Below, one piece after another: positions 29,737-51,906 of a stretch of DNA of 62,569 bases. Origin of the DNA: an uncultured Alphaproteobacteria bacterium (GTDB lineage: Bacteria; Pseudomonadota; Alphaproteobacteria; HIMB59; GCA-002718135); assembly GCA_902530685.1 (NCBI GenBank), contig CACAAZ010000004.1:1-62569 (forward strand), read 5' to 3'. The notes under the pieces were generated by a model, which saw only the letters and a program-made list of their open reading frames with translations, was not told where the DNA came from and did no database searches. How positions within the stretch are numbered: position 1 is the stretch's first letter; each line of letters starts with the position of its first letter. Position numbers and translations under genes: made by a program.

Positions 29737-30417
29737 GTGAGTTATTCTTACTATGAAGTCTACACCAATACACAACGAGCTTTTTCTGGATTAGGGTTCA
29801 CTTATGGATCAGATGAAGATGCTGCATTTATTACAACCTGGCTTGAAGTATTTGGTTTGGATGGGATCAAATTATTAACATTAAAAATTGAAGAGTTAGA
29901 TAACAATTTTAATCCTAGCATAGATCCATCAAAAATAAATGATGAGTTTGATTGTAAAAATAAATCTTTTTTGGTGATAGGACCAGGTTTAATTGATTAT
30001 TTAATATCAAAAATAGATAAAAGGGATGATTTAAAATTAACTTTTAAAAATTGTAATGACCCTATATTCCTTTTACCTTTACTTTACAAGTATGCCAAAA
30101 AAAATATCTATTCACAGTTTTTGTTAGATAAAAAAATTGATGCACAAATAACAAATAAAAATATTAGTATTAATAGAGATATTATCTCTACAAATTATCA
30201 AAGGAATTTTGATCTTTTACTCACAAAGAAAATTTTAAATGAACAAAGGTTAGATGTTAATATTCCATCATCAAATATTAATAATATGCTCTCTAAGGGT
30301 ATTAATCCTGATGAAAAATCTTGGAATCAAATATCTAAGATAGCTTTTAGAACTTTTGTTCCAGAGTCAGAGGAATCTAGAGCAAAAGGTGCTGGAGGTG
30401 GTGATGCAAACGATTAA
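29737..30417 (+). CDS. DUF3726-like protein
   Basis: N-terminal SYYEV..TQRAFSGLG..G.DEDAA...WLE..GLDG and C-terminal RTFVPESEESRAKGAGGGDAND match DUF3726 as I recall it; GTG at 29737 is the likelier start than ATG 29701. Confidence 0.7.
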   Translation: MSYSYYEVYTNTQRAFSGLGFTYGSDEDAAFITTWLEVFGLDGIKLLTLKIEELDNNFNPSIDPSKINDEFDCKNKSFLVIGPGLIDYLISKIDKRDDLKLTFKNCNDPIFLLPLLYKYAKKNIYSQFLLDKKIDAQITNKNISINRDIISTNYQRNFDLLLTKKILNEQRLDVNIPSSNINNMLSKGINPDEKSWNQISKIAFRTFVPESEESRAKGAGGGDAND

Positions 30418-31589
30418 TTTACGATATGTAAATCTCTTGGAACATTTGTAAGTAATTCAAAGCCATTTTCAGTTACCCTCACAGACTCACTTAGCTCAAG
30501 TCCCCATGTATCCATCCACATTCCACACATGAGGTGGTATGTTACGTTAGGATACAATAATGTTTTCTCATTTTTTCGAATACTTAGTGTGTGCTCTCCC
30601 CAATCTGGCGGATAGCCAAGACCAATTGAATAGCCAGCTCTTGATTCTTTTTCCAATCCATATTTTTCTAATACTGACCAAAAAGCAACTGCTACATTAT
30701 GACAACTATTACCTGGTTTAGTTTGTTCCAAGGCTCTCTCAATACCTTCATTAGTTATTTTTAATGTATCTGATATTTTTGGATCAGGCTTTCCTATGTA
30801 AACTGTTCTTGATAAGGCACAATGATAACGATGTTTTACACCTCCTAGTTCAATTATAGTGCCTTCATTATTTTCAAATTTTTTTTCACTTGGCGTTAAA
30901 TGTGATGCAGAGGCTGATCTTCCACTTGCGAGTATAAGTCCCAAACCAGCATATTCTCCACCCATTTTTGTTTCATCATTTCCGGCAATAAGGGTATTAT
31001 GAATTTTTCCAGCGACAGTACTTTGTTTTACTCCTTCTTTGATAGAATCAAAAGCAGTTTGCATTCCAGCTCTAACAAGAACTCCTGCATCCTTCATATA
31101 TTTAATCTCACTTTCCGACTTAATGTATCTTACCCAGTTGATAAGAAGATGAGCATTAATAAATTTAGCATCTGTTAAATTATTTTTTAATCTGCTATGA
31201 TTTTCAGCAGTATAATAATAACTATCCATTTCTACACCGATGCGGTTGGATGACCATTTTTTATCTTTAATTAATTGAACTACATAATCATAAGGGTGTA
31301 ATGGCGGAGATTGTATAAGATTTTCAGGATAACCATAAATATTTTCATCATATAAAAAAGTAGTTATTCTTGCCCCATTTGAATCTTGTTTTCTTCCAAA
31401 CCAATAAGGCTGGTCCTCGTCAATTGATATGATTATACCTTGTGGTACATAAAATGACCAACCATCATAGCCAGTTAGGTAATTCATATTTGATGGATCA
31501 GTACTAATTAAAATATCTATACCTTTTTTAGACATTGATTCTTTAACTTTTTTAATTCTAAGATTGTATTCTTCTTTTGAAAAAATCAT
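30414..31589 (-). CDS. doeA: ectoine hydrolase DoeA/EutD (M24 pita-bread fold)
   Basis: FSKEEY..R, DPSNMNYLTGYDGWSFY, WFGRKQDSNGA, RYHCALSRT, SRAGYSIGLGYPPDWGEHTLS, GMWMDTWGLE. Confidence 0.85.
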   Translation of the reverse strand: MIFSKEEYNLRIKKVKESMSKKGIDILISTDPSNMNYLTGYDGWSFYVPQGIIISIDEDQPYWFGRKQDSNGARITTFLYDENIYGYPENLIQSPPLHPYDYVVQLIKDKKWSSNRIGVEMDSYYYTAENHSRLKNNLTDAKFINAHLLINWVRYIKSESEIKYMKDAGVLVRAGMQTAFDSIKEGVKQSTVAGKIHNTLIAGNDETKMGGEYAGLGLILASGRSASASHLTPSEKKFENNEGTIIELGGVKHRYHCALSRTVYIGKPDPKISDTLKITNEGIERALEQTKPGNSCHNVAVAFWSVLEKYGLEKESRAGYSIGLGYPPDWGEHTLSIRKNEKTLLYPNVTYHLMCGMWMDTWGLELSESVRVTENGFELLTNVPRDLHIVN

Positions 31590-31604
31590 TGTTTCCCGTT
31601 TTAA

Positions 31605-32171
31605 TTATCTTTCTGATATTTCGTATCCAAATTGGTATGCTGTTTCAAGTAGGATCTCCCAAGTTGAAAGTGCAAAACCTCTAGGTATAAATAGTTGAAA
31701 ATTATTTTTAGAAAATTTTAATAACTTTATATTTACATGATGAATAGCAGAACTAGCAGAAGAATTTGCTTTGAATACTGACTCTCTTAGATCAATAGGT
31801 AAAAATCTGTTTAAAAGTAATGTGGTATTTTCTCCAGTTATATTAATTGATGTATATGCATGTGATAAATCTAAATTAGTTCCTAAATGATCTGGAAGAT
31901 CTAAATTATTTTTTAATATCCACCATTTTAGTGGCTCTATTCTCCAAATCGAATTTTCATCATTTAATATTCCCTCATTGAAGTGTGGAACTTTCTCAAT
32001 GTTTAGTTTTTCTTTTATATATGTTTCTGATTGAAATAAAGTATCTGGCCAACAAGCTATCTGCTTAAGATTGAGGTTTGTAGTTTCCTTAAATTTTATG
32101 GTTACATTATTATTAATAGGAAAGCTACCTGGTTTATATGAAGTATCTAACGATGAGGATCTATCAACCAT
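31605..32171 (-). CDS. soxG: sarcosine oxidase subunit gamma
   Basis: DLSHAYTSINITG, PIDLRESVF, IPRGFALSTWEIL; ATG 32171 overlaps the soxA stop. Confidence 0.8.
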   Translation of the reverse strand: MVDRSSSLDTSYKPGSFPINNNVTIKFKETTNLNLKQIACWPDTLFQSETYIKEKLNIEKVPHFNEGILNDENSIWRIEPLKWWILKNNLDLPDHLGTNLDLSHAYTSINITGENTTLLLNRFLPIDLRESVFKANSSASSAIHHVNIKLLKFSKNNFQLFIPRGFALSTWEILLETAYQFGYEISER

Positions 32172-35130
32172 GCATTCTCTCACCTTTTGGATCAAGCATG
32201 TGAGAAGATACTACTTGAATTTCAATTTGTTTGTTTCTAATCGGATCACTGCCAATTACATTAATATTTTTCCATTCTTCAACACCACCCTTTATAAATC
32301 CTAAGCCAATCCAATGTCCTAATTCGGGTGAATGAGTAACTGAAGTAATTCTACCAACACCGAAACCTTTTATATTATTTTTTTCACAAATTATTGTTCC
32401 GGAAGCAAAAGTATCATTCTTATTAACAGGAAAAAAACCCACTAGCTTTTCTCTATCTGAAGCACTTAAAACTCCTCTTTTTCTCAATGCGCTACCGATG
32501 TACGATTTCTTATCTGATGCCATTTTTCCTAAACCCACATCATCAATAGTTGTTCGACCATCAAGTTCAGCACCTGTTACATGTCCTTTTTCAATTCTAA
32601 GTGCACCTAGAGCTTCAACACCATATAAACACCCATCAAATTGTTTTGCGGATTTCCATAAAATATCCATCATTATATTTGCATAATCTGCTTGAATATA
32701 AATTTCAAATCCGAGCTCACCAGAAAAACTTATTCTAGCAATTCTACATGGAATTCCTCCCTTAAGTGTAGCTGAGATAAAACACATGAATGGTAAATTT
32801 TCATTAGATATCGTAGAAGGATCTTCTAAACATTGGCTTAAAACATCTCTTGTCTTTGGGCCAGAAATAGCTGCTACACCCCACTGCTCAGAAACACTTG
32901 TCACATTGACTTTTAAATCAGTCCATCGTACTTGAAGTAATTCTTCTAACCATGACATTACTTTTCCTGCCTGGGATGTTGAAGTTGTCATAAAATATTC
33001 ATTATCTGACAACCGCCAACAAGTACCATCATCTAAAACTATACCATCATCACGTAACATAATTCCATATCTCGTTTTATTTATTGGAAGTTTAGCAAAA
33101 GCATTAGTGTAAATTCTATTAATAAATTCTGTTGAGTCAGGTCCTTGAATAGCTATTTTACCTAATGAACTAACATCACATATACCTACTGTTTTTCTAA
33201 CTGTTGCAGCTTCTCTGATGTATGCCTCATCTATGGTCTCATTGCTTTTAGGAAAATACCATGGTCTATCATATAAACCAGCATCAATCATTGTTGCTCC
33301 ATTTTCCAAATTCCATGCATGCATTGGAGTAGTTCTAAGAGGCATGAAGTGTTTTCCAACACTCCTACCGGCTAATGCACCAATAGAAACAGGAGTAAAG
33401 GGTGGACGAAAAGTTGTAGTACCTACCTCTGGAATTTCTTTTCCAAGCAAATCTGCCATTAAAGATAAACCTATTATATTACCCATCTTACCTTGATCAT
33501 TTGCCATGCCTAAAGTTGTATAACGTTTTAAATGTTCAACTGATATAAATCCTTCTCTATGTGCTAAGCGTACATCATCACAGATTACATCATGTTGAAA
33601 ATCTACGAAACTTTTTGAGCGAGTTTTTTTTGATTTAACTTCATATAAAGGTTCGATTGGATTCATCCAGCCACCTTGTTTTGGAAAAAAATAATCTGTT
33701 TTTGATATTCCAAGTTTATTAATTGCATCTAAAGTACCTGCAATTCCTGAGTCAATACAATCACCTTTACCCCATATCCCTCTAGCAGAACCTATAACTG
33801 TAATATTTTCTTTGGGTTCTCCAGGTACAAAACATAAATTTTCTGTGTCCCAAACTGGACGCACTCCTCGATGAGATAATAGATGGACTGCAGGTGACCA
33901 TCCACCTGACATTAAGACCTGATCACATGTAATTGTATCTATTTTATTGTATTTTGAATTTATCGAGTTGGCGATATCTAAACTATTTATTTTTTTAGAA
34001 CCATTAATGTTATATGGAACAACACCATTTATTACTTCAAAATTATTTTTGTTTAAATCTATATTTGTTTCTTTGCGATTATCTAAAACTATTACATTTG
34101 CTCCAGCTTTTGCTAATATTTCTGCTGTTGAATATACTGAATCATTGTTAGTTGTAATTACAATTTTTTTCCCAGTTAATACACCATATCTATTTAAATA
34201 ATGTTTAGATGCGTTTACAGTCATTGAACCAGGGACATCATTATTATTAAATGCGATATGTCTTTCAAAAGAACCTGATCCGATTAAAACATGTTTAGCT
34301 CTAACAATCCAAAATCTCTGCTTTGGCAATCTTCTATCTGAGAGGGTAACGTTTTCTTCAACTCTTTCTACCAAACCTAACACACAATTATCGTACAAAC
34401 CAAATGCGGTTGTTCTTTTCATAACTCTTACACCAAGACTTTTTAGTTCTTTGAAAGCTTCGTCAGAATTAAATTCACTCTCAGATAATTGATCGCCTCC
34501 TATCATATTGTCCTGTTCAACAAGTATGACATCAAGTTTTCTATCAGCAGCTTCTTTAGCAGCAGCGATACCTGCAGGACCAGAACCGACTATAAGTATA
34601 TCACAGTGATCATTTGCATGTTCATACACATCTGGATCAGGTAAACGAGAACTTCTTCCCATACCAGCAGCTTTCCTAATGAATTTTTCAAAAAACATCC
34701 AAACAGATGTACCAGATCCCCACTCAAAAGGTGGAATTCCCATGAAAGTCTTGTAATAAAAACCTGCAGGAACAAATCGACTTAATAAGTTATTAATAGA
34801 AGCGAGATCAAAATTTACACTTGGGAATGCATTTTGGCCAGAAGCAATTAAACCTTCGTATAATTCTTGAGAAGTAACTCGAACATTTGGTTCTTTTCTA
34901 TCCCCAGTACCAATGGTTACCAATCCACCAGACTCCTCCACTCCACATGACATTATACCTCTAGGTCGATGATATTTAAAACTTCTTCCTACTACTCTAA
35001 TGTCATTAGCTAATAGAGCTGAAGCAAGAGAGTCACCTTGATAGCCAAAATAATTTTTATTTTCCCAACTAAATTTCAATTGTTTTTGACGATTAATTTT
35101 ACCAAAATTTTCTATTCTTCTTGAGCTCAT
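32164..35130 (-). CDS. soxA: heterotetrameric sarcosine oxidase / N-methylglutamate dehydrogenase subunit alpha
   Basis: GDSLASALLAN, GRSFKYHRPRGI, AGFYYKTFM, EHLKRYTTLGMANDQGK, TTFRPPFTP, GcvT-like C-terminal domain. Confidence 0.93.
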   Translation of the reverse strand: MSSRRIENFGKINRQKQLKFSWENKNYFGYQGDSLASALLANDIRVVGRSFKYHRPRGIMSCGVEESGGLVTIGTGDRKEPNVRVTSQELYEGLIASGQNAFPSVNFDLASINNLLSRFVPAGFYYKTFMGIPPFEWGSGTSVWMFFEKFIRKAAGMGRSSRLPDPDVYEHANDHCDILIVGSGPAGIAAAKEAADRKLDVILVEQDNMIGGDQLSESEFNSDEAFKELKSLGVRVMKRTTAFGLYDNCVLGLVERVEENVTLSDRRLPKQRFWIVRAKHVLIGSGSFERHIAFNNNDVPGSMTVNASKHYLNRYGVLTGKKIVITTNNDSVYSTAEILAKAGANVIVLDNRKETNIDLNKNNFEVINGVVPYNINGSKKINSLDIANSINSKYNKIDTITCDQVLMSGGWSPAVHLLSHRGVRPVWDTENLCFVPGEPKENITVIGSARGIWGKGDCIDSGIAGTLDAINKLGISKTDYFFPKQGGWMNPIEPLYEVKSKKTRSKSFVDFQHDVICDDVRLAHREGFISVEHLKRYTTLGMANDQGKMGNIIGLSLMADLLGKEIPEVGTTTFRPPFTPVSIGALAGRSVGKHFMPLRTTPMHAWNLENGATMIDAGLYDRPWYFPKSNETIDEAYIREAATVRKTVGICDVSSLGKIAIQGPDSTEFINRIYTNAFAKLPINKTRYGIMLRDDGIVLDDGTCWRLSDNEYFMTTSTSQAGKVMSWLEELLQVRWTDLKVNVTSVSEQWGVAAISGPKTRDVLSQCLEDPSTISNENLPFMCFISATLKGGIPCRIARISFSGELGFEIYIQADYANIMMDILWKSAKQFDGCLYGVEALGALRIEKGHVTGAELDGRTTIDDVGLGKMASDKKSYIGSALRKRGVLSASDREKLVGFFPVNKNDTFASGTIICEKNNIKGFGVGRITSVTHSPELGHWIGLGFIKGGVEEWKNINVIGSDPIRNKQIEIQVVSSHMLDPKGERMHG

Positions 35131-35132
35131 AA

Positions 35133-35411
35133 CTATTTTTCAAATACTTTTTGAAGTTGTGTGTGGCAAGGTTTAACACTCTTAATTTCATGAGTTATTG
35201 TTGAACGCTCGACTTCTAACCACATTCTACAACCATTTGAGTGTTGCCAAGTTTCTCTTTGAATGCCTTTGATATTTTCTCTAAAAAAGACTGCTTCAAC
35301 CCAATCTTTTTCTGGTGCATCTAAACTTGGATAAACTATTGATGCGTCACTTCCATAACTAAACTCGCTATGATCTCTATCTCCACAATAAGGGCATTTT
35401 ATTATTATCAT
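35133..35411 (-). CDS. soxD: sarcosine oxidase subunit delta
   Basis: CPYCG..EF and WQHSNGCRMW zinc-binding motifs. Confidence 0.92.
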   Translation of the reverse strand: MIIIKCPYCGDRDHSEFSYGSDASIVYPSLDAPEKDWVEAVFFRENIKGIQRETWQHSNGCRMWLEVERSTITHEIKSVKPCHTQLQKVFEK

Positions 35412-35414
35412 AAT

Positions 35415-36683
35415 TTAACCATGCATTTTTGGATCAGGGCCACTACCACTCTCATCAATATTAATACCTTTTTCAAATCTCTCTAAATTATGATTGGCAA
35501 TTACTTTATGAGGTCTTTCATTTGCTATTAAGTCAGCAAAATACCAGCCAGAAGCTGGACTTGCTTTAAAACCACCATAATTCCAACCTGCGTTTAAGTA
35601 CAAGTTTTCAACTGGTGTTTTGCACATAAAAAAAGATCCATCCATACTCATGTCCATCACTCCAGCCCAATGTCTTAACAATCTTAGTTTTCCAAGACAC
35701 GGCATTATTGCCATTGCACCCTCACCATTTTCTTTTACAGTTGGCAAGTTTCCCCTTTGAGCATAAGACTTGTACCAATCTAGCTCACCTCCAAATACCA
35801 TGCTTCCTTTATTTGTTTGAGAAATATAGAAATGTGCGGCACCAGCAGGAGCGTATATTAATACACAATCCAAAAGAGGTTTAACAGCCTCTGTAACAAA
35901 CGCCTGTAACTTATGAGACTCTATCGGTAAATTACCTAACTCTGCCATTTGCCATAAGACAGATGTATGACCAGCAACAGCAAATCCAATTTTTTTGCCT
36001 TTTATATCTCCCCTAGTAGTTTGCAAACTTTCTATTGATCCATTCTTACGTGTCACTCCAGTAACTTCACAATTCTGTAATATATCTACACCAAGTGAGT
36101 CAGCTGCCCTTGCATATCCCCATACAGCAGAGTCGTGCCTTGCATTACCAGCACGAGGTTGAACAATTGCTCCTAAAATTGGGAAACGGCCATTATCATA
36201 ATTAAGGTGAGGTATTTTATTTTTTAGTTTATTTAAATCCCACAACTCACCATCTGAACCAGTAAGTCTCATAGTGTTGTAACGTCTTGCAAAAGAATCA
36301 AGAGCACCTGGGTTGTTAATTAAAAGCACATGAGATCGCTGACTAAACATAACATTGTAATTCAAATCATGGCTTAAGTTTTCCCATAATCTTAATGTAT
36401 GTTCATAAAATTCTCTATTACCCGGCATCATATAATTTGATCGTACAATTGTTGTGTTACGCCCTGCATTACCACCACCAATCCAACCCTTTTCTAAAAC
36501 TGCAACATTATGCATGTTATGATTTTTGGCTAGGTAGTAAGCGGTAGCTAGTCCATGTAATCCTCCCCCCACAATAACTGCATCGTAAGATGCTTTTGGT
36601 TCTGGATCACGCCATTGTCTACTCCAACCTGAATTACCATTAAAGCCATTTTTAATTACATTCCAAGCATTGAATCTAGTCAT
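35415..36683 (-). CDS. soxB: sarcosine oxidase subunit beta
   Basis: WRDPEPKASYD, GGGLHGLATAYYLAK, GRNTTIVRSNY, ARHDSAVWGYARAA, PIESHKLQA. Confidence 0.93.
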   Translation of the reverse strand: MTRFNAWNVIKNGFNGNSGWSRQWRDPEPKASYDAVIVGGGLHGLATAYYLAKNHNMHNVAVLEKGWIGGGNAGRNTTIVRSNYMMPGNREFYEHTLRLWENLSHDLNYNVMFSQRSHVLLINNPGALDSFARRYNTMRLTGSDGELWDLNKLKNKIPHLNYDNGRFPILGAIVQPRAGNARHDSAVWGYARAADSLGVDILQNCEVTGVTRKNGSIESLQTTRGDIKGKKIGFAVAGHTSVLWQMAELGNLPIESHKLQAFVTEAVKPLLDCVLIYAPAGAAHFYISQTNKGSMVFGGELDWYKSYAQRGNLPTVKENGEGAMAIMPCLGKLRLLRHWAGVMDMSMDGSFFMCKTPVENLYLNAGWNYGGFKASPASGWYFADLIANERPHKVIANHNLERFEKGINIDESGSGPDPKMHG

Positions 36684-36792
36684 AAGATATTCGTATATTT
36701 AATCTATTTTTTGTTCAATATATTTTTTTTCATTAAATTGAACATGCAGTCGCATGCTTTATAGCCTTAATTTAAGACCAAAAATAAAGCAT

Positions 36793-37815
36793 TTAACTAC
36801 TTGGCCATGTATCATTTAATTTATACCCTTCTGGGAAAGGATCATCTTTAGAAATATATAGTTTTTGCTCTCCTGTAATAAAAGCAGACCCTTTTATTGA
36901 TGGAATGATCATATGTTTATTTTCTTTTGTATATTCCTTCAAAATAAAAGTTTCAAATGAAGACCCTATTATTGATCTTGATATAAATTTCTCATTAAGT
37001 TGTATTTCATTTTTAGCATACATAAGTGCTAATCGTGCAGAAGTACCAGTTCCACAAGGTGAGCGATCCAACTTACCAGGTCTGATACAAACAGTATTCC
37101 AACCCTCTTTTTGATTAAAATCATTAGATTTTATTGGCTCAATAAACTGACAAAAAGAAATATAATTTAGACTTGGAAGTGTGGGATGATTAAATCCTAA
37201 GCTAATGTTCGCTTCTCTAACAATTTCTTTTGAAATTTTTACAAATTTATCAGCATTGTTACTTTCTATAGTTAAATTAAAATCACTTGCATTACAAATA
37301 ACAAAACTATCACCTCCAAATACGGTGCTAACAATTATTTCACCATATGAAGGAGTTTTAAGTTTTACTTCAAGTTGATCAACAAAAGATGGCAAGTTTT
37401 GTACTTCAACAAATTTTACTTTATTATTCTTTATAAATGCTTTTATAGGTATAATACCTCCAGGGGCCTCAAGCATAAATTCAGTAATTGGATCCTCCAT
37501 TTTAATAAAACCTTTTTCAAGAAGTACTGTAGCTACACAAATACTATTAGAACCGCTCATAGGTGGATTATCTTCTGGTTCCATAATAATAAATCCAGCT
37601 TTAGCCTTTTCATTATTAGGAGGAACTATTAAATTAAAATGTTTAAAAACACCTCCTCTTGGTTCATTTAACAAAAAATTTCTAAATTTTTTATCATCAA
37701 ATAAAAATTTTGATTGATCAAGAATCGTATCTCCTTTTAAATCAATATTTCCAGCAACAATGACATCGCCTATTTCTCCACAACAATGAGCGTTATAGAT
37801 TTGAATTTCCTGCAT
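36793..37815 (-). CDS. proline racemase superfamily enzyme, Ser/Cys type (hydroxyproline epimerase/dehydratase-like)
   Basis: HCCGEIGDV, LNEPRGG, PPMSGSNSICV (Ser where ProR has MCGH), DRSPCGTGTSAR, DPFPEGY. Confidence 0.88.
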   Translation of the reverse strand: MQEIQIYNAHCCGEIGDVIVAGNIDLKGDTILDQSKFLFDDKKFRNFLLNEPRGGVFKHFNLIVPPNNEKAKAGFIIMEPEDNPPMSGSNSICVATVLLEKGFIKMEDPITEFMLEAPGGIIPIKAFIKNNKVKFVEVQNLPSFVDQLEVKLKTPSYGEIIVSTVFGGDSFVICNASDFNLTIESNNADKFVKISKEIVREANISLGFNHPTLPSLNYISFCQFIEPIKSNDFNQKEGWNTVCIRPGKLDRSPCGTGTSARLALMYAKNEIQLNEKFISRSIIGSSFETFILKEYTKENKHMIIPSIKGSAFITGEQKLYISKDDPFPEGYKLNDTWPSS

Positions 37816-38969
37816 TAATTAATAATTAGATCTTCAATAGCTTTTGAGTGATGTGTGATTTGTTCGTATCCATTTTCGGTTATTATAAAACTATCACCTA
37901 CTTGACCTCTAAAATCTTTTGCACTACTTCCTCCATCTACAGCAAATACCATTCCAGGCTTTAAAACAGTTTTATTGCCAACTACTAGTTGAGGTTCCTC
38001 TAAAAAACTAAATCCTGTACCTCTTCCACACCTAAATGTTGGGTAGGGGTAACCTTCTGCTTGAATAGTATCAGCATAAGCAGCATGCACTTCTTCTGCA
38101 GTAACTCCAGGGCCTAAGACACTAAGTGCAGCTTTTTGTGATTTTACTGCTACTTCAAATGCTTTAATTTGACTTTCATCTTTAATTTCATTAACCCAAA
38201 ACACTCTGTCAAATCCCAATTTAAATCTATGAAAATTTGTAGATCCACAATAACAACAAAAAACAGGTTCTCCTTTTTTAACTAGTTTGGTTGATGCACG
38301 TCGATGAGTATATGGCAGTTCTTTCCCTGATGTAATAACCGGTAGAAAATGAATGTTAGGTGACATATTAGGACTATCTGGATAATGTGCTTTTAATAGC
38401 TCTGCTGCTTTTCTAGTTCCAGCTTGAGATTGGGCTAAAGCAATTTCGTACTGAGGTACATTATCTGCAATTACTGATTTTGCTCCTTCCATCATTGCCA
38501 TAGCGACTTCACCTGCATGTCTTGCTATTTGTAATTCTTCTGAAGATTTAATCATACGTATATCATTTAAAAAAGGTGTGACATTGCCCATTGTTTTACC
38601 TTGTAATAATTCAGATAAATAATGGTTTACTGTTGCATTAATTTTATATTTTTCACAAAATATGTTTTTATATTTATATATAATTGCAGGTAAAAATTCT
38701 TTCCATTCTTTACCAATACCATCATTCCAAGTTTCAATTTTATCAACTGGAGTATTTTCTGGGACTAAAAGAACATCAAGCAAAGGTGTGATTAGAATAC
38801 TTTTATCATCTTTGGGAACTAGAAGAATCGTAGGTCTATTAAAATCCATATGAAGAAAATCATGATAGCCCGTAAAGTAATACAAATTATCATCATCAGT
38901 AATAATAGCTAAATCAATATCGTGTTCATTCATTTTTTCTCTTAATTTATTTAGATTTTTTTCGAACAT
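37815..38969 (-). CDS. M24-fold hydrolase (creatinase/EutD-like), metal ligands degenerate
   Basis: YYFTGY, IRMIKSSEE, YTH, CGRGTG, LKPGMVFAVDG, DSFIITENGYEQIT. Confidence 0.82.
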   Translation of the reverse strand: MFEKNLNKLREKMNEHDIDLAIITDDDNLYYFTGYHDFLHMDFNRPTILLVPKDDKSILITPLLDVLLVPENTPVDKIETWNDGIGKEWKEFLPAIIYKYKNIFCEKYKINATVNHYLSELLQGKTMGNVTPFLNDIRMIKSSEELQIARHAGEVAMAMMEGAKSVIADNVPQYEIALAQSQAGTRKAAELLKAHYPDSPNMSPNIHFLPVITSGKELPYTHRRASTKLVKKGEPVFCCYCGSTNFHRFKLGFDRVFWVNEIKDESQIKAFEVAVKSQKAALSVLGPGVTAEEVHAAYADTIQAEGYPYPTFRCGRGTGFSFLEEPQLVVGNKTVLKPGMVFAVDGGSSAKDFRGQVGDSFIITENGYEQITHHSKAIEDLIIN

Positions 38970-38994
38970 TCTATTTTCTCCATTTAAATAAATA

Positions 38995-40149
38995 TTATTT
39001 TAGTTGCTGTTCAACCAATTCACTCCAATAGGAAGATCCTATCACCAATAGCTCATCGTTAAAATCATAATCTGGAGAATGTAAAGGTTTTGCATGGGAA
39101 CCTTCAGTACCATTCCCCATTAAAACAAAACAGCCAGGTTTTTCTTCTGACATTATTGAGAAGTCTTCAGAAAATAATCGTGGCTCAATATCACCATCAC
39201 AATTTTCATTACCAAGTAGTGAGATTGCAGCATTAGTAGCAGAATCAGCTTGATCTTTTGAGTTAAATGTTACTGGACAGGTAGTTTCATATTTAACACT
39301 ACCATCTACGCCATGTGCACTACAAATGCCCTCAACAATCTGCAACATTTTTGATGCAATAATTTCATTTGTTTTTTTTGATAATGCTCTGGCATCTCCG
39401 GTCATTTTTACATTACCAGGTAAAACATTTTTTTTTCCATCTGTTATAAATTCAGTAATAGAAACTATACCATTGTCGGCTGGGTTTAATTTTCTTGAAA
39501 CAATGGATTGCAAGGCAACTGCTATTTGCGATCCCACAGTTATAGCATCAACACCCATATGAGGTAATGCTGCATGCCCGCCTTTTGCTTTTATATCTAT
39601 TTCAAATAAATTTTCACTGGCAGTTATAACGCCTTTTCTTGTTCCAAAAGTTCCAATTTTCATATTAGGAATATTGTGCATTGCATATACTTCATCAATA
39701 CTAAATTTTTCAAATAAACCTTCATCAATCATTGTTCTTGCACCAAATGTATTTTCCTCATCGGGTTGAAAAATAAAATACACAGTTCCATTAAAGTTTC
39801 CTTTTTCCGACAAATATTTTGCAGCTCCAAGTAACATTGTTGTATGACCATCATGACCACATGCATGCATTCTATTTTCAAATTTAGATTTATAATTAAA
39901 GTTATTTATTTCATGTATTGGAAGCGCGTCCATATCAGCTCTAATACCTATTGATTTAGAACTTTTTCCTTTTTTTAATACTCCAACTACTCCAGTTCTT
40001 GCTATTCCTTGATGAACCTCTATTCCAAATTCTTTAAGGAGCGATGTAACTTTATTTGAAGCATATTCTTCTTCAAAACTTATTTGAGGATGCATATGTA
40101 AATCATGTCGCCACTCAACTAATTGATTATGTAAAGTCTGTGTTTTCAT
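38995..40149 (-). CDS. M20D amidohydrolase (hippurate hydrolase family)
   Basis: WRHDLHMHP, GIRADMDALP, MHACGHDGHT, FQPDEE, GGHAALPH, SEDF, LHSPDYDFND. Confidence 0.92.
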   Translation of the reverse strand: MKTQTLHNQLVEWRHDLHMHPQISFEEEYASNKVTSLLKEFGIEVHQGIARTGVVGVLKKGKSSKSIGIRADMDALPIHEINNFNYKSKFENRMHACGHDGHTTMLLGAAKYLSEKGNFNGTVYFIFQPDEENTFGARTMIDEGLFEKFSIDEVYAMHNIPNMKIGTFGTRKGVITASENLFEIDIKAKGGHAALPHMGVDAITVGSQIAVALQSIVSRKLNPADNGIVSITEFITDGKKNVLPGNVKMTGDARALSKKTNEIIASKMLQIVEGICSAHGVDGSVKYETTCPVTFNSKDQADSATNAAISLLGNENCDGDIEPRLFSEDFSIMSEEKPGCFVLMGNGTEGSHAKPLHSPDYDFNDELLVIGSSYWSELVEQQLK

Positions 40150-40151
40150 TT

Positions 40152-41597
40152 TTAATTAATATTATTAAATTCTTTAATCTTATCATCTAATGAGAGCATT
40201 TGTTTATAATGATGATCCCAAAAATTTTGACTTCTTCTTTTTTCAAAATCATCTAAATTGATTCCTTGTTGCTCCACCCAAGTATAATAACCAAGATTGA
40301 AAATTCTTTCTTTATCTCTTTGATTAAGCTCTAATGTATTATCAGTATTTGCACCTTTTAAGAATTCTCCAAATATTTCACCACACGTAGTTTCATCATA
40401 TATATTTTTAAATTCTTCCTTGGTTTTATTTAATTCTGAAAGATACAAATCTGCTCCATCTGTTGCAACTGTGACAATTGCATCTTCTTTACCTAATTTC
40501 ATATATTTAGCTAATTTAATTGAAGCTAATATATTAGCTATTGCAGAAAAACCGAATTCTGGAAGTCTTTTTACAAAATTATTATCAAAACCTTTTTTTC
40601 TAGTTAAGTATTCTTGACCAATCTCTGTATTAAACATCATATTCAAATTATTAGTTGCACGATCTGTAATACCTACAACAAAGTCTGAATTCATTACATT
40701 ATGAATTAGGGGGACATGTTTGTCACCTATTCCTTGTATATTATGTTCACCATAGCCATTATTAAGCAAAGTTGGGCACTCTAAGGCTTCCACAACGGCT
40801 ATCTTTGCATTTAACTTTTCTTTTAAGTAATCTCCTGCAGCAAGTGTGCCACTTGATCCTGATGCACTAACATAAAATCTTGCTTTTAAGTCTGTATCAC
40901 CTTTTACTTGTAAAAAAGATTTTTCAAACGAAGGACCAGTTACTGAACGGTGAATTGCATAGTTGTAATATTCATCAAACTGGTTGATAATATCATTATT
41001 TGGATCTTTTTTTAGCTCATTACAAGCGTCATAAATTTCTTTGACATTACTCTCAGTGCCTTTAGTTTTAATTATATCATTTTTATCCTCAACCCATTTT
41101 TCTAACCAGTTAAATCTTTCTTGACTCATCCCTTCAGGTAAAATTGCAACACTTTTTAAACCAAGTATTCTAGAAATAGCAACTCCTCCTCTACAATAAT
41201 TTCCAGTTGATGGCCAAACAGCTTTTTGTTTTTCATAATCGAAACTACCGTTAAGAATTCTGGGTAATAAACATCCATAAGCTGCCAAAACTTTATGTGC
41301 TGTTATCATAGGAAATAATCTTCCTATATTAACAATTATCTTTGCTTCAACTCCTGTAAATTCATCTGGTAAAACAATGTGCTCTGGAACATTTGAAAAG
41401 TTCGAGTGATCTCTATTATTAAACCAGTGAACTCTAAATAAATTTTTTGGATCAGCTGCATCTTTATCAATCGATTTTAAATTTGATTTAACATCTTCAT
41501 TTATAATATGTGGATTTTGTAATTCAGAAATTGTTGGAAGCACTATTCCTCTATCCCTAAAGTATCTTGATGTTTTATCTATTATTTGTTCGTTCAT
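40152..41597 (-). CDS. PLP-dependent fold-type II enzyme (cysteine synthase/TrpB-like), function unknown
   Basis: AHKV Schiff-base Lys, WPSTGNYCRGG, SASGSSGT phosphate loop, HNIQGIGDKHVP. Confidence 0.8.
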   Translation of the reverse strand: MNEQIIDKTSRYFRDRGIVLPTISELQNPHIINEDVKSNLKSIDKDAADPKNLFRVHWFNNRDHSNFSNVPEHIVLPDEFTGVEAKIIVNIGRLFPMITAHKVLAAYGCLLPRILNGSFDYEKQKAVWPSTGNYCRGGVAISRILGLKSVAILPEGMSQERFNWLEKWVEDKNDIIKTKGTESNVKEIYDACNELKKDPNNDIINQFDEYYNYAIHRSVTGPSFEKSFLQVKGDTDLKARFYVSASGSSGTLAAGDYLKEKLNAKIAVVEALECPTLLNNGYGEHNIQGIGDKHVPLIHNVMNSDFVVGITDRATNNLNMMFNTEIGQEYLTRKKGFDNNFVKRLPEFGFSAIANILASIKLAKYMKLGKEDAIVTVATDGADLYLSELNKTKEEFKNIYDETTCGEIFGEFLKGANTDNTLELNQRDKERIFNLGYYTWVEQQGINLDDFEKRRSQNFWDHHYKQMLSLDDKIKEFNNIN

Positions 41598-41600
41598 AAT

Positions 41601-42578
41601 TTATAACCTTGTACCTAAATTTTTTTTCATTGCGATATCAAAAGTAAACCTAGCTATAGCAGTATCCTGAACACCTGTGCCAGTTAAATCACATAAAGTG
41701 ATATCCTCTTTATTTTTTCTTCCTAATGCTGGATTTAAAATAACTTCTCCTATTTCATTAAAATTTTCATTTATGGAAATTATATTAGCCTTAATAGCGT
41801 GGTGTAATTCACCTAATACTGCGGTTTGAGACTGACTGTCAGGAATATAGGTATCACATTTTTTTATTATATCAGGATCTATTTCATTTTTTTCTTCAGC
41901 ATCTGAGCCCATGGCGGTTATGTGTAATCCTTTCTTCAACCATGCACTTTTAATTAAAGGTGACTTACTTGGTGTAGTTGTAACAACTATTTCTGATAGT
42001 TTAACTAATTCTTCAATTGAGGAAGATTTTTTTATATCAAGACCTAAATACTGAATTTCTCTTTCAAAATTAATCAGTTTTTCTCTATCTCGTGACCATA
42101 TAAATACTGTACTAATAGGACGAACTAATTTTAATGCTTCAAGTTGTAACTTTGCTTGTAAGCCAGCACCTATGATACCTGCTTTTGTTGAATCTGGGTT
42201 GGATAAATATTTTGCAGCGATTGATCCAGCAATTGCGGTACGAATATCTGTTAAATATCCTTCATCTAATAATATTGATTTAATAACACCTGTCTTAGAG
42301 TCTAATAATATCATCATACCATTGCTTGATGGAATACCAAGTTTAGGATTATCAAAAAAACCTGAAGCTATTTTTATTGCATAACTATCTAATCCTTCAA
42401 TGTAAGCTGCTTTAACATCAGTTTCACCATTATATTTATGAACATCAAGTCGTTGAATAGGCGGCATAATGGTATTTCCATCAGCTAAATTCTTAAAAGC
42501 ATCCTCAATAACGGGAATGAGCTGCTCATTTAGTTGAACACATTTCTTGATATCATCTAATTTTAAGAAAACTGTCAT
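41601..42578 (-). CDS. eutC: ornithine cyclodeaminase/mu-crystallin family, ectoine utilisation EutC
   Basis: GETDVKAAYIEG, IKIASGFFDNPKLG, LLDEGYLTDIRTA, GSDAEEKNE, CDLTGTGVQD. Confidence 0.85.
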   Translation of the reverse strand: MTVFLKLDDIKKCVQLNEQLIPVIEDAFKNLADGNTIMPPIQRLDVHKYNGETDVKAAYIEGLDSYAIKIASGFFDNPKLGIPSSNGMMILLDSKTGVIKSILLDEGYLTDIRTAIAGSIAAKYLSNPDSTKAGIIGAGLQAKLQLEALKLVRPISTVFIWSRDREKLINFEREIQYLGLDIKKSSSIEELVKLSEIVVTTTPSKSPLIKSAWLKKGLHITAMGSDAEEKNEIDPDIIKKCDTYIPDSQSQTAVLGELHHAIKANIISINENFNEIGEVILNPALGRKNKEDITLCDLTGTGVQDTAIARFTFDIAMKKNLGTRL

Positions 42579-43525
42579 AAAATCAATTTTGAAAATAATT
42601 CAGTATCAATATTACCACCACAAATTAAACAAATTATATTTTTACCTAAGTGTTTTGATAGATTGTCTTTTGCTACTATTACACTGGTCGCTGCTGCGCC
42701 CTCTGTTACTAATCTATGTTCGTGAAAATTTAATCGAATTCCTTCAGCTATTTTTTCCTCACTAACTAAAATAAAATCATCAATTGTTTTTTGAGCAATA
42801 TCAAAGGTATATTTATTTTCTAAACCTATACTACCGCCTAAACAATCAGCCAATGTTTCTAGTTCTTCTACATCGACTGGTTTACCATGCTTTAAACTTT
42901 CATACATAGATGGTCCTCTTTCCATAGAAACAGCAATTACTTTAATATCAGGTTTTTGCAATTTTAACGCGAGTGCAATTCCTCCAATTAATCCGCCACC
43001 TGAAGTTGGAATTATTACTGTATCTACTTCAGGAAAATCATTTAACATTTCTATACCGACAGTTCCCTGGCCTGCAATAACATCTTCGTCATCAAATGGA
43101 TGAATAAAAGGAATATTATTTTTATTTGAAATTTCTCTAGCATACATATCTGCTTCATCACTATTTGATCCATAAATTTCAACATTTGCTCCTAATGCTT
43201 CTATGGCTTCTTTTCTGTATTGTGGAACCATTTTTGACATATAAATTGTAGACTTAATACCCAGTTTACTCGAAGCAAAAGCAACACCTTTTCCATGGTT
43301 GCCTGTTGAAACAGCAATTACACCTTTCTGTTTTTCATCATTTGTTAAAGAAAGTAACTTATTTGTTGCACCTCTTAATTTAAATGAACCTGTTTTTTGA
43401 AGAGATTCTAATTTTAATTTAACGGTCCTATTTTGGGATAATAAATCGGATGTCACTAAAGGAGTATGGTTAATGTACGGTGAAATTTTTTTATGAGACT
43501 CTAAAATTCTATCTAATGAAATCAT
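42575..43525 (-). CDS. eutB: threonine-dehydratase-like hydroxyectoine utilisation dehydratase EutB
   Basis: LQKTGSFKLRGA, STGNHG, HPFDDEDVIAGQGT, SGGGL, TLADCLGGSIGLEN (EutB-type). Confidence 0.82.
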   Translation of the reverse strand: MISLDRILESHKKISPYINHTPLVTSDLLSQNRTVKLKLESLQKTGSFKLRGATNKLLSLTNDEKQKGVIAVSTGNHGKGVAFASSKLGIKSTIYMSKMVPQYRKEAIEALGANVEIYGSNSDEADMYAREISNKNNIPFIHPFDDEDVIAGQGTVGIEMLNDFPEVDTVIIPTSGGGLIGGIALALKLQKPDIKVIAVSMERGPSMYESLKHGKPVDVEELETLADCLGGSIGLENKYTFDIAQKTIDDFILVSEEKIAEGIRLNFHEHRLVTEGAAATSVIVAKDNLSKHLGKNIICLICGGNIDTELFSKLIL

Positions 43526-43534
43526 TTTGATATT

Positions 43535-44689
43535 TTATAATATATATAACCCTCTAGATGTTTTAGATAAAACCTCAACACCTTCATTAGTTATAATAAT
43601 ATTATCAATTAATCTTACTCCTATTTTATCTTCATAGCTAAATGCAGGAGGTTCAATTGCTATAACCATGCCTGGCTCAAATACACGCTCAGAAGATCCA
43701 TCGACTATTAAAGGTTCAACCCATGTTGGTGGAAATGCTATTCCCACTGCGTAACCTGTCATATGTAAACGGTACTTCTCCATACCTGCTTTTTCAATTA
43801 TTGATTTTGCTATATTATGTGCTTTTCTTACTTCTTTACCAGGACCCATCTCTTGAATACATGCGTCTCCAGCTTCTTTTATAACATTAAATATTTCTTT
43901 CATTCTTTCACTTGGTTTACCAACACACATATTTCTTCCAATTGTGCAACAATATCTTCTATAGTGAGATCCAAACTGTAAATGCATGAAATCTCCTTCT
44001 TGTAATTTTTTATCTGATGGTTCACCATGTGCAAACATAGATCTATCTCCAGTTAGAAAATTCATAGGACTAGAAGGTATATCTCCACCATTCATAAACA
44101 TTTCATAATGAATAGTGGCTGATATTTCTCTTTCGGATATTCCTGGCTTTATTGTTTTTAATCCAGCATTGAAACTTATATCTGCAATTTCAGAAGCTTT
44201 GCGAACATATTTCAATTCCGTTTCTGATTTTAGCAGTTTTATTTCTCCAACTAGATCTGTTGAAATATGAACAATTGAGTCTCCAAGTATTTCATTAATT
44301 TTGTTGTATTCAAATGGATGAAGGTAATAATAAGGTACTTCAATCCCAATTCTTTTTTTTAAGAGTTTTTTTTCTACCATTAGTTTGTATGTGGCATCAA
44401 TAGGATCTTCAGGTTCTTGTCCACCCCAGCCATATACTTCATCTGCCATGGAATGCTCATTCATCATTTCCACTTCAGATCTTCTAGTCATCATAATAAT
44501 TGGATCAGAATCAATTGGAAAAAGTAAAACTTCAAATTCTTGATATCCTTTTGCAGGAGTACCAATTAAATAATTTATGTTGGTTGGCGATATTACCATT
44601 AAAAGTTCAATATTAAATTTTTTCATCGAACTTCGAGTTTTGTCCCACCTTTCTCTAAATTCTTCTTTAGAAAAAAAATCTTTAGACAT
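43535..44689 (-). CDS. M24-fold hydrolase, EutD-like paralog
   Basis: FSKEEF..R, LKSETE, FAHG, HMTGYAVGIAFPPTW, PGMVIAIEP. Confidence 0.85.
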   Translation of the reverse strand: MSKDFFSKEEFRERWDKTRSSMKKFNIELLMVISPTNINYLIGTPAKGYQEFEVLLFPIDSDPIIMMTRRSEVEMMNEHSMADEVYGWGGQEPEDPIDATYKLMVEKKLLKKRIGIEVPYYYLHPFEYNKINEILGDSIVHISTDLVGEIKLLKSETELKYVRKASEIADISFNAGLKTIKPGISEREISATIHYEMFMNGGDIPSSPMNFLTGDRSMFAHGEPSDKKLQEGDFMHLQFGSHYRRYCCTIGRNMCVGKPSERMKEIFNVIKEAGDACIQEMGPGKEVRKAHNIAKSIIEKAGMEKYRLHMTGYAVGIAFPPTWVEPLIVDGSSERVFEPGMVIAIEPPAFSYEDKIGVRLIDNIIITNEGVEVLSKTSRGLYIL

Positions 44690-44694
44690 GAATA

Positions 44695-45852
44695 TTATGT
44701 CACTATCAAGCTGGTAGGTGTTTTATTGGTTAATACCTCAGCACCATTTTCAGTTAAAATTACTGTATTTGAATAAAAGAAATCTCCCTTACCACTCCAC
44801 ATCAACCAAGAATGAGTATGAAAAACCATACCTACTTTTAAAATTCTTTTACTATTTGGTGCTAGGCCTGTAACCATACTTCCTCCAACCCAGCTTGGAG
44901 GAAAAGCGATGCCAACTAAGTAGCCACAATGATGACGTCTATATTCAGGTAAACCAGCCGCATCAACAACATCTTGCCATGCTTGATATACATCTCCTGT
45001 AGTTGCTCCAGGCTTTATCGCTTTGAGTTGTGCTTCACCCGCCTTATTACTTAAATCTGCCGCAAAATCTGCATCATGAGGTTTTTCACCAATAAAAATA
45101 AGACGTCCCATTGGCGCTTGATATTTTTTATAAGAACCTGCGTGTTCAATATACAGTGCATCACCAGTCTTCATTACATCACCTCTCCAAGTCGTATGTT
45201 CTTCATTAAGACGATCAGTCATTCGAATAAATGGACCAAAGCCTGCGTATTCACTACCAGCTTTGATCATAGCAGAATGCATTTCTGCTGATATGTCTCT
45301 GTCACTTGCCCCATCCTTTGCTGCTTCTATCGCCGCTAAAGCACCTACATCAGCAGCTTCAGCAGCTTTTCTTGTATATTCGATTTCAAGGGGTGATTTT
45401 ACCTGCCTTAATTCATCAACTAATCCTGAACAGTTAGAGCAATTAGCTTTACTTAATTTGTTAGTTACTTCTTCGTAAATAGCTGGTGTTAAAAATAAAG
45501 AATTTTTTTCAATTCCAATATTTAAAGTATCGCATTTTGAGTCTTTAATTGCTTTGAAAATAAAATCTGCAGGATTTTCATAATCTTTAAATCCATAAAA
45601 GTTTGCATTTAAAACATATCTCTCAACAGATACTTGTTCCATTTGTCTACATATCAGAATCATATCTCCTTCTAATGGAACAAAAAGAACATGACATGCA
45701 AAGTAACCCCAATGGTCCAATCCAGTTAAATAATAAATATTTTCAGGAACAGCTACTAAAATAGCATCTAAGTTGTTTTTTTTCATTTCTTGACGAACAG
45801 CAACTAAACGACTTGCTAATTCTTCTTTAGGAAAAGCGTGAGTTATTGGCAT
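44695..45852 (-). CDS. M24-fold hydrolase, EutD-like paralog
   Basis: FPKEE..R, PENIYYLTG, VKSPLEI, EEHTTW, HHCGYLVGIAFPPSW; ATG 45852 has a GAGGAG SD (the ORF track starts at 45867). Confidence 0.85.
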   Translation of the reverse strand: MPITHAFPKEELASRLVAVRQEMKKNNLDAILVAVPENIYYLTGLDHWGYFACHVLFVPLEGDMILICRQMEQVSVERYVLNANFYGFKDYENPADFIFKAIKDSKCDTLNIGIEKNSLFLTPAIYEEVTNKLSKANCSNCSGLVDELRQVKSPLEIEYTRKAAEAADVGALAAIEAAKDGASDRDISAEMHSAMIKAGSEYAGFGPFIRMTDRLNEEHTTWRGDVMKTGDALYIEHAGSYKKYQAPMGRLIFIGEKPHDADFAADLSNKAGEAQLKAIKPGATTGDVYQAWQDVVDAAGLPEYRRHHCGYLVGIAFPPSWVGGSMVTGLAPNSKRILKVGMVFHTHSWLMWSGKGDFFYSNTVILTENGAEVLTNKTPTSLIVT

Positions 45853-51167: not shown

Positions 51168-51179
51168 TTAAACTTTCTT

Positions 51180-51216
51180 AACTCAGGTAATATAGATTGC
51201 CTGAGTTTTTGATTTT
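51180..51216 (+). terminator. intrinsic terminator/attenuator between ehuB and ehuC
   Basis: AACTCAGGTAAT-atag-ATTGCCTGAGTT (one G-U pair) followed by TTTGATTTT. Confidence 0.8.
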
Positions 51217-51232
51217 CCAAGGATAACCAATT

Positions 51233-51904: not shown

Positions 51905-51906
51905 TT

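Follow-up and report, generated by a model that had tools for sequence, protein, structure and literature searches.

Creatinase and the ectoine hydrolase EutD are M24-fold enzymes that lack the metal site of the peptidases and are described as working independently of metal. Creatinase relies on a catalytic His and on Arg and Glu residues that bind the guanidinium and carboxylate groups, and it cleaves a C-N bond to give a secondary amine, which is followed by sarcosine oxidase. DoeA was assigned to the M24 family in 2011, when its likeness to creatinase was also pointed out, and it hydrolyzes ectoine upon expression in E. coli (PMC3187862). In this study, four genes of this fold were analyzed in a window of 62,569 nucleotides (the whole stretch of DNA considered, with a G+C content of about 31%) from an uncultured alphaproteobacterium of the HIMB59 lineage (contig CACAAZ010000004.1 of assembly GCA_902530685.1). 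They are referred to below as M24a (44695), M24b (43535), M24c (37815), and, for the DoeA-clade gene, 30414. On balance, we favor the interpretation that the four encode anciently diverged, selectively maintained M24B enzymes without a dimetal center, which would act on small non-peptide C-N bonds and not on Xaa-Pro bonds.

All four genes lie on the minus strand, and their products carry the pita-bread Peptidase_M24 domain (PF00557; E-values of 4e-30, 6e-22, 8e-45, and 7e-30) and the N-terminal Creatinase_N domain (PF01321), both above the Pfam cut-offs. The pairwise identity among them is 24 to 31%, and they are therefore old paralogs, not recent duplicates. In fold, length, Creatinase_N domain, and upstream His they resemble the Xaa-Pro dipeptidases and prolidases (1PV9, 1WY2, and 4ZNG), but the metal ligands are replaced in all four. 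The reference ligands are Asp212, Asp223, His287, Glu316, and Glu330 of P. horikoshii prolidase (1WY2), whose His195 touches the nitrogen of the scissile bond (PMC2814137). The corresponding positions were read from a phmmer alignment to solved prolidases, from a 75-row MAFFT alignment in which nine canonical control rows show H/D-D-H-E-E in these columns, and, for M24a, M24b, and M24c, from an hhalign comparison of the family profile with the canonical profile. The three methods were concordant for these three proteins, and 30414 was assigned with phmmer and MAFFT. At its His column, phmmer sets L324 opposite H287 by gap placement and MAFFT sets Y320, and the latter was adopted.

All four proteins retain the upstream His, which lies within the motifs SASH, PYTH, MFAH, and NEEH that the first-pass annotation had pointed out. 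In 30414, H230 is followed by E247, A258, Y320, M354, and S367; in M24c, H222 by C239/C241, G252, R316, D345, and G358; in M24b, H221 by Q238, T249, Y313, E346, and I361; and in M24a, H224 by E241, P252, Y316, H352, and S366 (390-residue numbering, from an open reading frame [ORF] called at a TTG at 45867; the ATG at 45852 gives 385 residues, in agreement with homologues of 383 to 386 residues). None of the five ligands is thus retained in 30414, M24a, or M24c, the last having D345 in place of Glu as a conservative change, and M24b retains one (E346). As judged from these columns, the canonical dimetal site cannot form in any of the four proteins. That four divergent paralogs all lack the D-D-H-E-E set had been claimed from a by-eye reading, and the three alignment methods and the canonical controls bear this out. 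Nineteen of the 20 residues listed in that reading were right; the second position of M24c is G252 and not Asp. The Asp of that reading, D254, is found two residues downstream, where prolidases have the Thr next to the metal; it adjoins the invariant Arg255, and 16 of 19 family rows have Asp here.

The residues that replace the ligands are fixed within each family. H224, E241, P252, Y316, H352, and S366 are invariant among 24 sequences of the M24a family; in 25 sequences of the M24b family, H221, Q238, Y313, and E346 do not vary and the conservation of T249 and I361 is at least 90%; and H222, C241, R313, R316, and D359 are invariant among 19 sequences of the M24c class. For the three M24 genes shared with the nearest genome record (L001, the single-cell assembly of isolate AG-404-D18), the ratio of nonsynonymous to synonymous substitution rates is 0.05, 0.11, and 0.05 (one pair each; synonymous distances of 0.6 to 1.2). 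The DoeA chain of H. elongata (6TWK) and a Rhizobium DoeA named by the Prokaryotic Genome Annotation Pipeline (PGAP) read E-P-Y-M-T at the ligand columns, so a genuine ectoine hydrolase likewise lacks all five ligands.

The phylogeny divides the four proteins into two lineages. It was obtained by a quick IQ-TREE search (LG+G4) of 75 rows, with true creatinases left out and with the Shimodaira-Hasegawa-like approximate likelihood ratio test (SH-aLRT) as the only support measure. 30414, M24a, and M24b share one 29-row clade (SH-aLRT 99) with the DoeA proteins named by PGAP and with DoeA_2 of actinobacteria, and every member of this clade has a Tyr at the His-ligand column and a (Y/F)PPxW loop; the longer form of this loop, GY.(V/I)G..(Y/F)PP.W, occurs in three of the four proteins, as had been noticed earlier. 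Within this superclade the M24b family (nine rows, SH-aLRT 100, including two 39% relatives from rhizobial plasmids) is sister to the remainder, and the M24a family (seven rows, SH-aLRT 100) is separate from the DoeA clade (12 rows, SH-aLRT 100). M24c stands in a separate 23-row clade (SH-aLRT 96) with the signature H/C-G-R-(E/D)-G and without the EutD loop. The basal rows of this clade still read D-G-R-E-E, keeping the first Asp and both Glu ligands, which argues for a stepwise loss of the metal site in the M24c lineage that was independent of the loss in the DoeA lineage. The first-pass annotation had proposed four amidine hydrolases: three of them are indeed kin of EutD/DoeA, but the four are not all of one kind, since M24c belongs to a Cys/Arg clade of its own. 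For M24a, M24b, and M24c the name amidine hydrolase is a putative one, drawn from kinship and neighbors. A further recurrent ligand variant, x-E-H-E-S, was seen in 11 of 34 distant representatives; these rows and three other variant rows make up one 14-row clade (SH-aLRT 97). Changes to the dimetal site seem to have arisen on several occasions in the M24 fold.

Of the four proteins, 30414 is the only one placed inside the clade of PGAP-named DoeA, M24a and M24b being sister families and M24c lying outside. It scores 367.7 bits against the H. elongata DoeA, and in the tree it emerges at the base of the DoeA clade, without a resolved placement and beside a plasmid protein of Priestia megaterium. 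Its identity to PGAP-named DoeA is 46 to 48% and equally high to unnamed proteins of Priestia and haloarchaea. Of the 67 columns without variation in the remaining 11 rows of the clade, it retains 59 (35 are kept by M24a and 32 by M24b) and deviates at eight, including a change of PHxTW to SHLTP beside the conserved His. On TIGR02993 (cut-off 613 bits), 30414 reaches 460.7, M24a 187.8, M24b 131.4, and M24c 64.5 bits, and on the DoeA_2 profile NF038259 (cut-off 575 bits) the scores are 176.3, 231.4, 190, and 63.7 bits, respectively, so that all four fail on both profiles. A juxtaposed eutE/doeB deacetylase gene is the criterion of Mais et al., as quoted in PMC8739950, and 30414 has no such neighbor but follows soxG by 15 nt. 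Compared with DoeA/EutD, the similarities are the fold, the two-domain layout, the Tyr at the His-ligand column, the (Y/F)PPxW loop, and neighbors of the Ehu and EutA/B/C types, with 30414 in the same clade and M24a and M24b in the same superclade; the differences are E-A-Y-M-S instead of E-P-Y-M-T and SHLTP instead of PHxTW in 30414, soxG upstream in place of a eutE pair, and the separate families formed by M24a (E-P-Y-H-S) and M24b (Q-T-Y-E-I). The label doeA that 30414 had been given is consequently insecure in view of its score, its eight deviant columns, and the missing eutE/doeB neighbor, and we file the protein as a DoeA-clade member of uncertain substrate.

M24a is, by its matches, a member of a large unnamed family, with 3334 matches at E<=0.001 among 8000 scored candidates and 57 to 91% identity among the 120 matches listed. 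M24b, with 240 matches among 2891 candidates, belongs to a smaller and mostly marine family. As the first-pass annotation had expected of automated pipelines, all the names that sources assign to members of these families refer to peptidases, apart from a single 'Creatinase', and the Atlas clusters for one homologue (P0287) read 'M24 family' only. The M24a protein of L001 is 91% identical to that of the window, and the eight genes from M24a to the proline-racemase-like gene are intact there in the same order. After this block L001 has neither soxBDAG nor the 30414 gene. Opposite-strand genes (19059-21156 of L001) occupy the place that soxBDAG and the DoeA-clade gene have in the window (30414-36683), and an 814-residue gene with DAO and GCV_T domains, similar to dimethylglycine dehydrogenase (5157-7601 of L001), occupies that of the glutamine amidotransferase (GATase)-like gene. 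These gene differences indicate that the island is a mosaic.

The neighborhoods of M24a were collected by a genome scan with 262 matching stretches, of which 238 code for relatives. The best 80 loci were retained, and adjacency was scored in the 62 of them whose flanks measure at least 1.5 kb on each side. For the classification of neighbors, tblastn to seed proteins was used, and the Pfam families of the seeds were read in 13 of 14 ORF-called loci (109 of 130 ORFs). An amidase or CN-hydrolase gene adjoins M24a in 28 of the 62 loci, another M24 gene in 19, and both in 11. Of the 80 loci, 40 have GntR genes no more than 6 kb from M24a, 31 have Ehu-type substrate-binding protein (SBP) genes, 23 SBP_bac_5 genes, 17 aspartate-dehydrogenase-like genes, and ten Amdase/EutA-like genes in this range; orthologues of the GATase-like protein (48 to 55% identity) are found in seven. 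Amidase, CN-hydrolase, and GATase-like proteins are unrelated and share one slot, which suggests that the product of M24a is an amide or ureide that is cleaved by the next enzyme. In Roseibium/Labrenzia, a SoxB that is 70.5 to 71.7% identical to that of the window follows the M24a-amidase pair. The context of M24b was covered in L001 and in two plasmid relatives (39% identity), from Mesorhizobium and Aminobacter, which stand beside genes for an EutE-type deacylase and a threonine dehydratase or near ehuBCDA.

The M24c class is also abundant, with 4817 matches among 8000 scored candidates, at least 83% identity in all of the 120 matches listed, and 53 cluster representatives at E<=1e-30, and it is frequent among marine metagenome proteins. 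On plasmids of Roseovarius pelagicus and Aminobacter sp. SR38, orthologues with 56% identity are found in the order AsnC-SBP-ehuCDA, LysR, and then M24c-Amdase-soxB-soxD-soxA; their SoxB is 70.5 to 70.8% identical to that of the window, and the Aminobacter sp. SR38 cluster also carries a 50.5% orthologue of the M20 gene at 38995. More distant genes of the class have racemase-family, GntR, amidase or CN-hydrolase, and ATP-binding cassette (ABC) genes as neighbors. The position of M24c and its orthologues beside soxBDAG recalls creatinase and sarcosine oxidase, and an 89% relative is source-named 'Creatinase'. However, M24c is not an orthologue of the solved creatinases (1CHM, 1KP0, and 7YTO): its match to 1CHM (61.2 bits) is weaker than that to prolidases (78.4 bits), and with the family profile creatinase (190 bits) ranks 13th, with prolidase at 247 bits. 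The other three M24 proteins reach 36 to 54 bits to creatinase. M24c has the invariant Arg316 at the His-ligand column. P0451 was considered as a creatinase orthologue and was rejected, as it turned out not to be one.

The four genes belong to an array of 13 minus-strand genes that runs in one direction from 45852 to 30414, with intergenic gaps of -32 to 25 nt and a sole larger gap of 109 nt before soxB (Table 1). M24a and M24b are separated by 5 nt, and the start of the racemase-family gene overlaps the stop of M24c by one base. In its called form, the soxG-like ORF shares 32 nt with soxA, scores 57 bits on TIGR01375 (cut-off 143.95), and is without a Pfam match, so its true start and identity are uncertain. 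Beyond the array lies a gene for a protein of 367 residues, between the EutA-like gene and the gene for succinate-semialdehyde dehydrogenase (SSADH). It has no Pfam match above the cut-off, and it resembles L-arginine:glycine amidinotransferase (AGAT; 1JDX), with which its FDAA, HIDA, and HC(A/W)T stretches align; these presumably hold the catalytic Asp, His, and Cys of amidinotransferases. It also matches SxtG, HsvA, and StrB1.

Table 1. Positions of the M24 genes and of the genes around them in the window. PLP, pyridoxal 5'-phosphate; scores in bits.
Feature	Position	Strand	Evidence
M24a, DoeA superclade, H/E-P-Y-H-S signature	44695..45852	-	Pfam, ligand columns, own clade with SH-aLRT 100
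M24b, DoeA superclade, H/Q-T-Y-E-I signature	43535..44689	-	Pfam, ligand columns, clade with SH-aLRT 100
EutB-like PLP dehydratase (threonine dehydratase family)	42575..43525	-	NF005680 374.4 (cut-off 413); PALP Pfam
EutC-like ornithine cyclodeaminase/mu-crystallin protein	41601..42578	-	NF006141 'cyclodeaminase' 448.8, above cut-off 408; TIGR02992 eutC 417.1, below cut-off 471.65
Divergent fold-type II PLP enzyme, 481 aa, distantly cysteine-synthase-like	40152..41597	-	PALP 40.5; top solved relative cysteine synthase, 62
M20 amidohydrolase, putative deacylase of N-acyl/N-carbamoyl amino acids (DoeB2/AbgB-like role)	38995..40149	-	TIGR01891 318.8, above cut-off 153.75; DoeB2 NF038260 315.5, below cut-off 550
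M24c, separate Cys/Arg class, H/C-G-R-D-G signature	37815..38969	-	Pfam, ligand columns, clade with SH-aLRT 96
Proline-racemase-family protein (trans-3-hydroxy-L-proline dehydratase-like)	36793..37815	-	Pro_racemase 338.8; NF047722 433.9, below cut-off 550
Heterotetrameric sarcosine-oxidase-family enzyme: soxB 35415-36683, soxD 35133-35411, soxA 32164-35130, soxG-like 31605-32195	31605..36683	-	soxB TIGR01373 576.1, above cut-off 529.45; soxD by SoxD Pfam; soxA TIGR01372 1149.3, below cut-off 1164
DoeA-clade M24 protein, H/E-A-Y-M-S signature	30414..31589	-	15 nt downstream of soxG
Class-I glutamine-amidotransferase (GATase)-like protein	48244-48963	-	General profile scans
ArgE-like M20 deacylase	48998-50167	-	General profile scans
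ehuB-, ehuC-, ehuD-, ehuA-like ABC transporter	50337..53394	+	NCBIfam: EhuA 403.7 (cut-off 345.4), EhuC 213.6 (196.95), EhuD 256.6 (205.2), all above; EhuB-like binding protein (50337-51167) 162.6, below cut-off 190.9
EutA-like protein (arylmalonate decarboxylase / Asp-Glu-hydantoin racemase family)	53396..54151	-	TIGR02990 204.9, below cut-off 318; Amdase Pfam
AGAT-family amidinotransferase	54151..55254	-	258, E 1.4e-75 to 1JDX, residues 4-364
Succinate-semialdehyde dehydrogenase family (Ssd/DoeC-like)	55296..56747	+	TIGR01780 724.6, above cut-off 646.35

The gene vocabulary of the window is that of ectoine utilization (PMC5924519, PMC8739950, and PMC3187862). By their predicted products, the surroundings are of the ectoine-utilization type without eutE and the diaminobutyrate (DABA) aminotransferase gene, and with additional enzymes that handle amidino and N-methyl groups. 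Two described arrangements come close to this one. In the DoeA_2/DoeB2 system of Actinomycetota (NF038259 and NF038260; Tsukamurella plasmid locus), an M20-type deacetylase replaces EutE, and the M20 protein encoded at 38995 is DoeB2-like; however, the proteins of the window are far under the cut-offs, and DoeA_2 has its own branch in the tree. A survey from 2026 tentatively described eutE-less clusters of Thermodesulfobacteriota 'usually with two eutD homologs' and clusters of Bacillales with an additional eutD homologue and abgB (PMC13188858). These clusters of Bacillota and Thermodesulfobacteriota share with the window the co-directional arrays, two EutD homologues, eutB, eutC, and an M20 abgB gene. 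In contrast to them, the window comes from a low-GC marine alphaproteobacterium and has four M24 genes, one of them of a non-EutD lineage, as well as SoxBDAG and an amidinotransferase. Our literature search, which left most subscription journals outside, found no description of the M24a, M24b, or M24c families or of their ligand replacements.

Several other genes of the window deserve mention. A molybdopterin S/N-oxide reductase gene of the BisC/TorA family (45962-48247, plus strand; TIGR00509 860.8 bits, below the cut-off of 1017.55) is divergent to the M24 array and upstream of it and is conserved there in L001. Converging on the 3' end of 30414 are a 554-residue ORF without a Pfam or NCBIfam match (28067-29731) and a gene for a DUF3726 protein (29701-30417), both on the plus strand; these two and the AGAT-like gene had no counterpart among the 90 fetched loci. 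A TauD-family dioxygenase gene, similar to TmpA/gamma-butyrobetaine dioxygenase (315.8 bits, below the cut-off of 400), and two glutamine-synthetase-family genes, one of type III (618.7 bits, above the cut-off of 469.6), are located at 2042-3112, 3182-4507, and 14389-15747, all on the minus strand, and are further signs of a region for organic-nitrogen scavenging. An Rfam scan of the window yielded no riboswitch and only a tRNA (61919-62002, minus strand, 52.7 bits), which overlaps the 5' end of the MgtE-family ORF at 60537-61970; the true start of this ORF is probably more internal. Promoter and terminator predictions were fewer than in shuffled sequences (67 versus 81.5 and 6 versus 7.3, respectively) and were uninformative.

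With the fold, ligand loss, conservation, kinship, and neighborhoods as described above, we infer catalysis, metal independence, the class of substrate, and the order of steps from the kinship with DoeA and from the recurrent trio of a racemase-like gene, an M24 hydrolase gene, and an amide hydrolase gene. Metal-independent C-N hydrolysis of ectoine-like solutes seems the best account. The Ehu-type ABC transporter would import an ectoine-like cyclic amidine or a related amidino or ureido zwitterion, on which 30414, M24a, and M24b would act in the manner of ectoine hydrolase: water may be activated by the upstream His together with the replacement residues (Glu/Gln, Tyr, and His/Met/Glu), and the ring would be opened or the substrate cleaved without a metal. 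The product would be an N-acyl or N-carbamoyl amino acid, from which a co-encoded amide hydrolase would strip the acyl group (the M20 amidohydrolases here, and an amidase, CN-hydrolase, or GATase-like protein elsewhere), and the EutB/EutC-like, PLP, and aldehyde-dehydrogenase enzymes would process the resulting amino acid. 30414 would be nearest to a genuine ectoine hydrolase, with a pocket altered beside the His, and M24a and M24b may correspond to the arrangement with two EutD homologues of the eutE-less type.

Hydantoin utilization combines a racemase, a ring-opening hydrolase, and an N-carbamoylase. The trio around M24a and M24c (an Asp/Glu/hydantoin-racemase-family gene, an M24 gene, and an amidase, CN-hydrolase, or M20 gene) resembles it by analogy and not by homology, although the candidate ring opener here has the M24 fold and is not a hydantoinase of the amidohydrolase superfamily. 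In M24c, the pocket of Cys-x-Cys, Arg313/Arg316, and Asp345 would belong to an independent lineage without the metal site, and the enzyme appears to form a conserved module with the M20 amidohydrolase, the racemase-like enzyme, and the SoxBDAG-type oxidase. By analogy with the succession of creatinase and sarcosine oxidase, M24c most likely takes the first step on a different solute and yields an amino acid, secondary or N-methylated, for consumption by SoxBDAG. A bolder version, which we hold tentatively and regard as somewhat doubtful, is that M24c represents a third, independently evolved M24 chemistry without the metal site and that with the M20, racemase-like, and SoxBDAG proteins it makes up a pathway, so far undescribed, that handles a marine solute of the guanidino, ureido, or N-methylated kind, M24a and M24b being hydrolases for ectoine analogues so far unrecognized as marine nutrients. 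The neighboring AGAT-like amidinotransferase points to the same pathway.

Several observations weigh against metal-independent C-N hydrolysis in a pathway of this type. Pfam and NCBIfam scans found no DABA aminotransferase in the window, and no eutE/doeB gene (succinylglutamate-desuccinylase/aspartoacylase family) was present among its scanned ORFs, which encode M20 amidohydrolases instead. 30414 stays below the NCBIfam DoeA cut-off, and M24a and M24b fail that of DoeA_2. Neither an amide hydrolase nor a second M24 gene stands beside M24a in 26 of the 62 loci, and the neighbor classes rest solely on tblastn to seed proteins. In the tree, the canonical outgroup is non-monophyletic and the composition is deviant in 11 rows, including 30414 and M24b. 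EutB and EutC are themselves without an established function (PMC8739950 and PMC5924519).

It is possible, though we consider it less probable, that the locus is only an island for ectoine and 5-hydroxyectoine of the eutE-less kind, in which the EutD homologues share known work (ectoine and hydroxyectoine, or alpha- and gamma-N-acetyl-2,4-diaminobutyrate) and an M20 enzyme replaces EutE. EhuA, EhuC, and EhuD pass their cut-offs, EutA/B/C-like genes and an SSADH gene are present, a Priestia locus has the order eutB-M24-cyclodeaminase-PLP-M20 and a Tsukamurella locus the order doeB2 (M20)-aminotransferase-doeA-SSADH, and eutE-less clusters with two eutD homologues have been described (PMC13188858). 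However, the EhuB-, EutA-, and EutB-like proteins are all below the equivalog cut-offs, the DABA aminotransferase was not found by the scans of the window, and M24a mostly occurs without EutB/EutC, in the company of amidase or CN-hydrolase, aspartate-dehydrogenase-like, GntR, SBP_bac_5, and tripartite ATP-independent periplasmic transporter genes. Moreover, M24c is not a relative of EutD in the tree, and four paralogs with such low mutual identity, each with its own fixed pocket, exceed the need of two substrates.

A different objection concerns the metal. M24c, perhaps with others of the four, might still be a metalloenzyme with a new site made of Cys239/Cys241, His222, and Asp345/Asp359, which M24c keeps, which are invariant or nearly so in the family, and which lie at or beside the former ligand columns. 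This speaks against metal independence, which we consider least secure for M24c. We nevertheless think a new metal site unlikely, because the invariant Arg313 and Arg316 would suit the binding of a substrate carboxylate better than that of a metal. The hetero-oligomer of the adjacent M24a and M24b, for which a test had been proposed in the first-pass annotation, is not favored either. An obligate heterodimer with a composite active site could be imagined from the 5-nt spacing of the two genes, their adjacency in L001, the dimeric state of M24 enzymes (PMC4108388), and the 19 loci with some other M24 gene beside M24a, but that neighbor is M24b in one of the 62 loci (L001), M24c-like or DoeA-like in 18, and absent in 43, and both proteins keep their own complete set of invariant pocket residues, which makes it improbable. 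That the four are ordinary Xaa-Pro di- or aminopeptidases, as their Pfam and source names say and as an M19 dipeptidase gene nearby (27026-28012) might hint, is hardly credible with at most one of five ligands kept against all five in the nine canonical control rows. Equally remote is the idea of non-catalytic pseudoenzymes with a binding or regulatory role of the Ebp1/PA2G4 type. Such M24 pseudoenzymes do exist (PMC3888471), but the genes considered here are closely packed, in operon-like fashion, with genes for catabolic enzymes and transporters, their polar pocket residues are invariant, and their nearest characterized relative is an enzyme.

Thousands of public proteins with peptidase names are probably not peptidases, and at least three conserved families have fixed and distinct pockets. 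Metal-free M24 enzymes and clusters with several EutD homologues are already in print, and the present set extends that work. The carriers, which comprise this uncultured low-GC marine alphaproteobacterium, roseobacters, rhizobia, and gammaproteobacterial metagenome-assembled genomes, appear to hold modules for the uptake and catabolism of small nitrogen-rich solutes, and the turnover of dissolved organic nitrogen would gain steps if the substrates were named. An M24 fold that gave up its dimetal center more than once would also be a useful case for the study of re-invented hydrolase chemistry.

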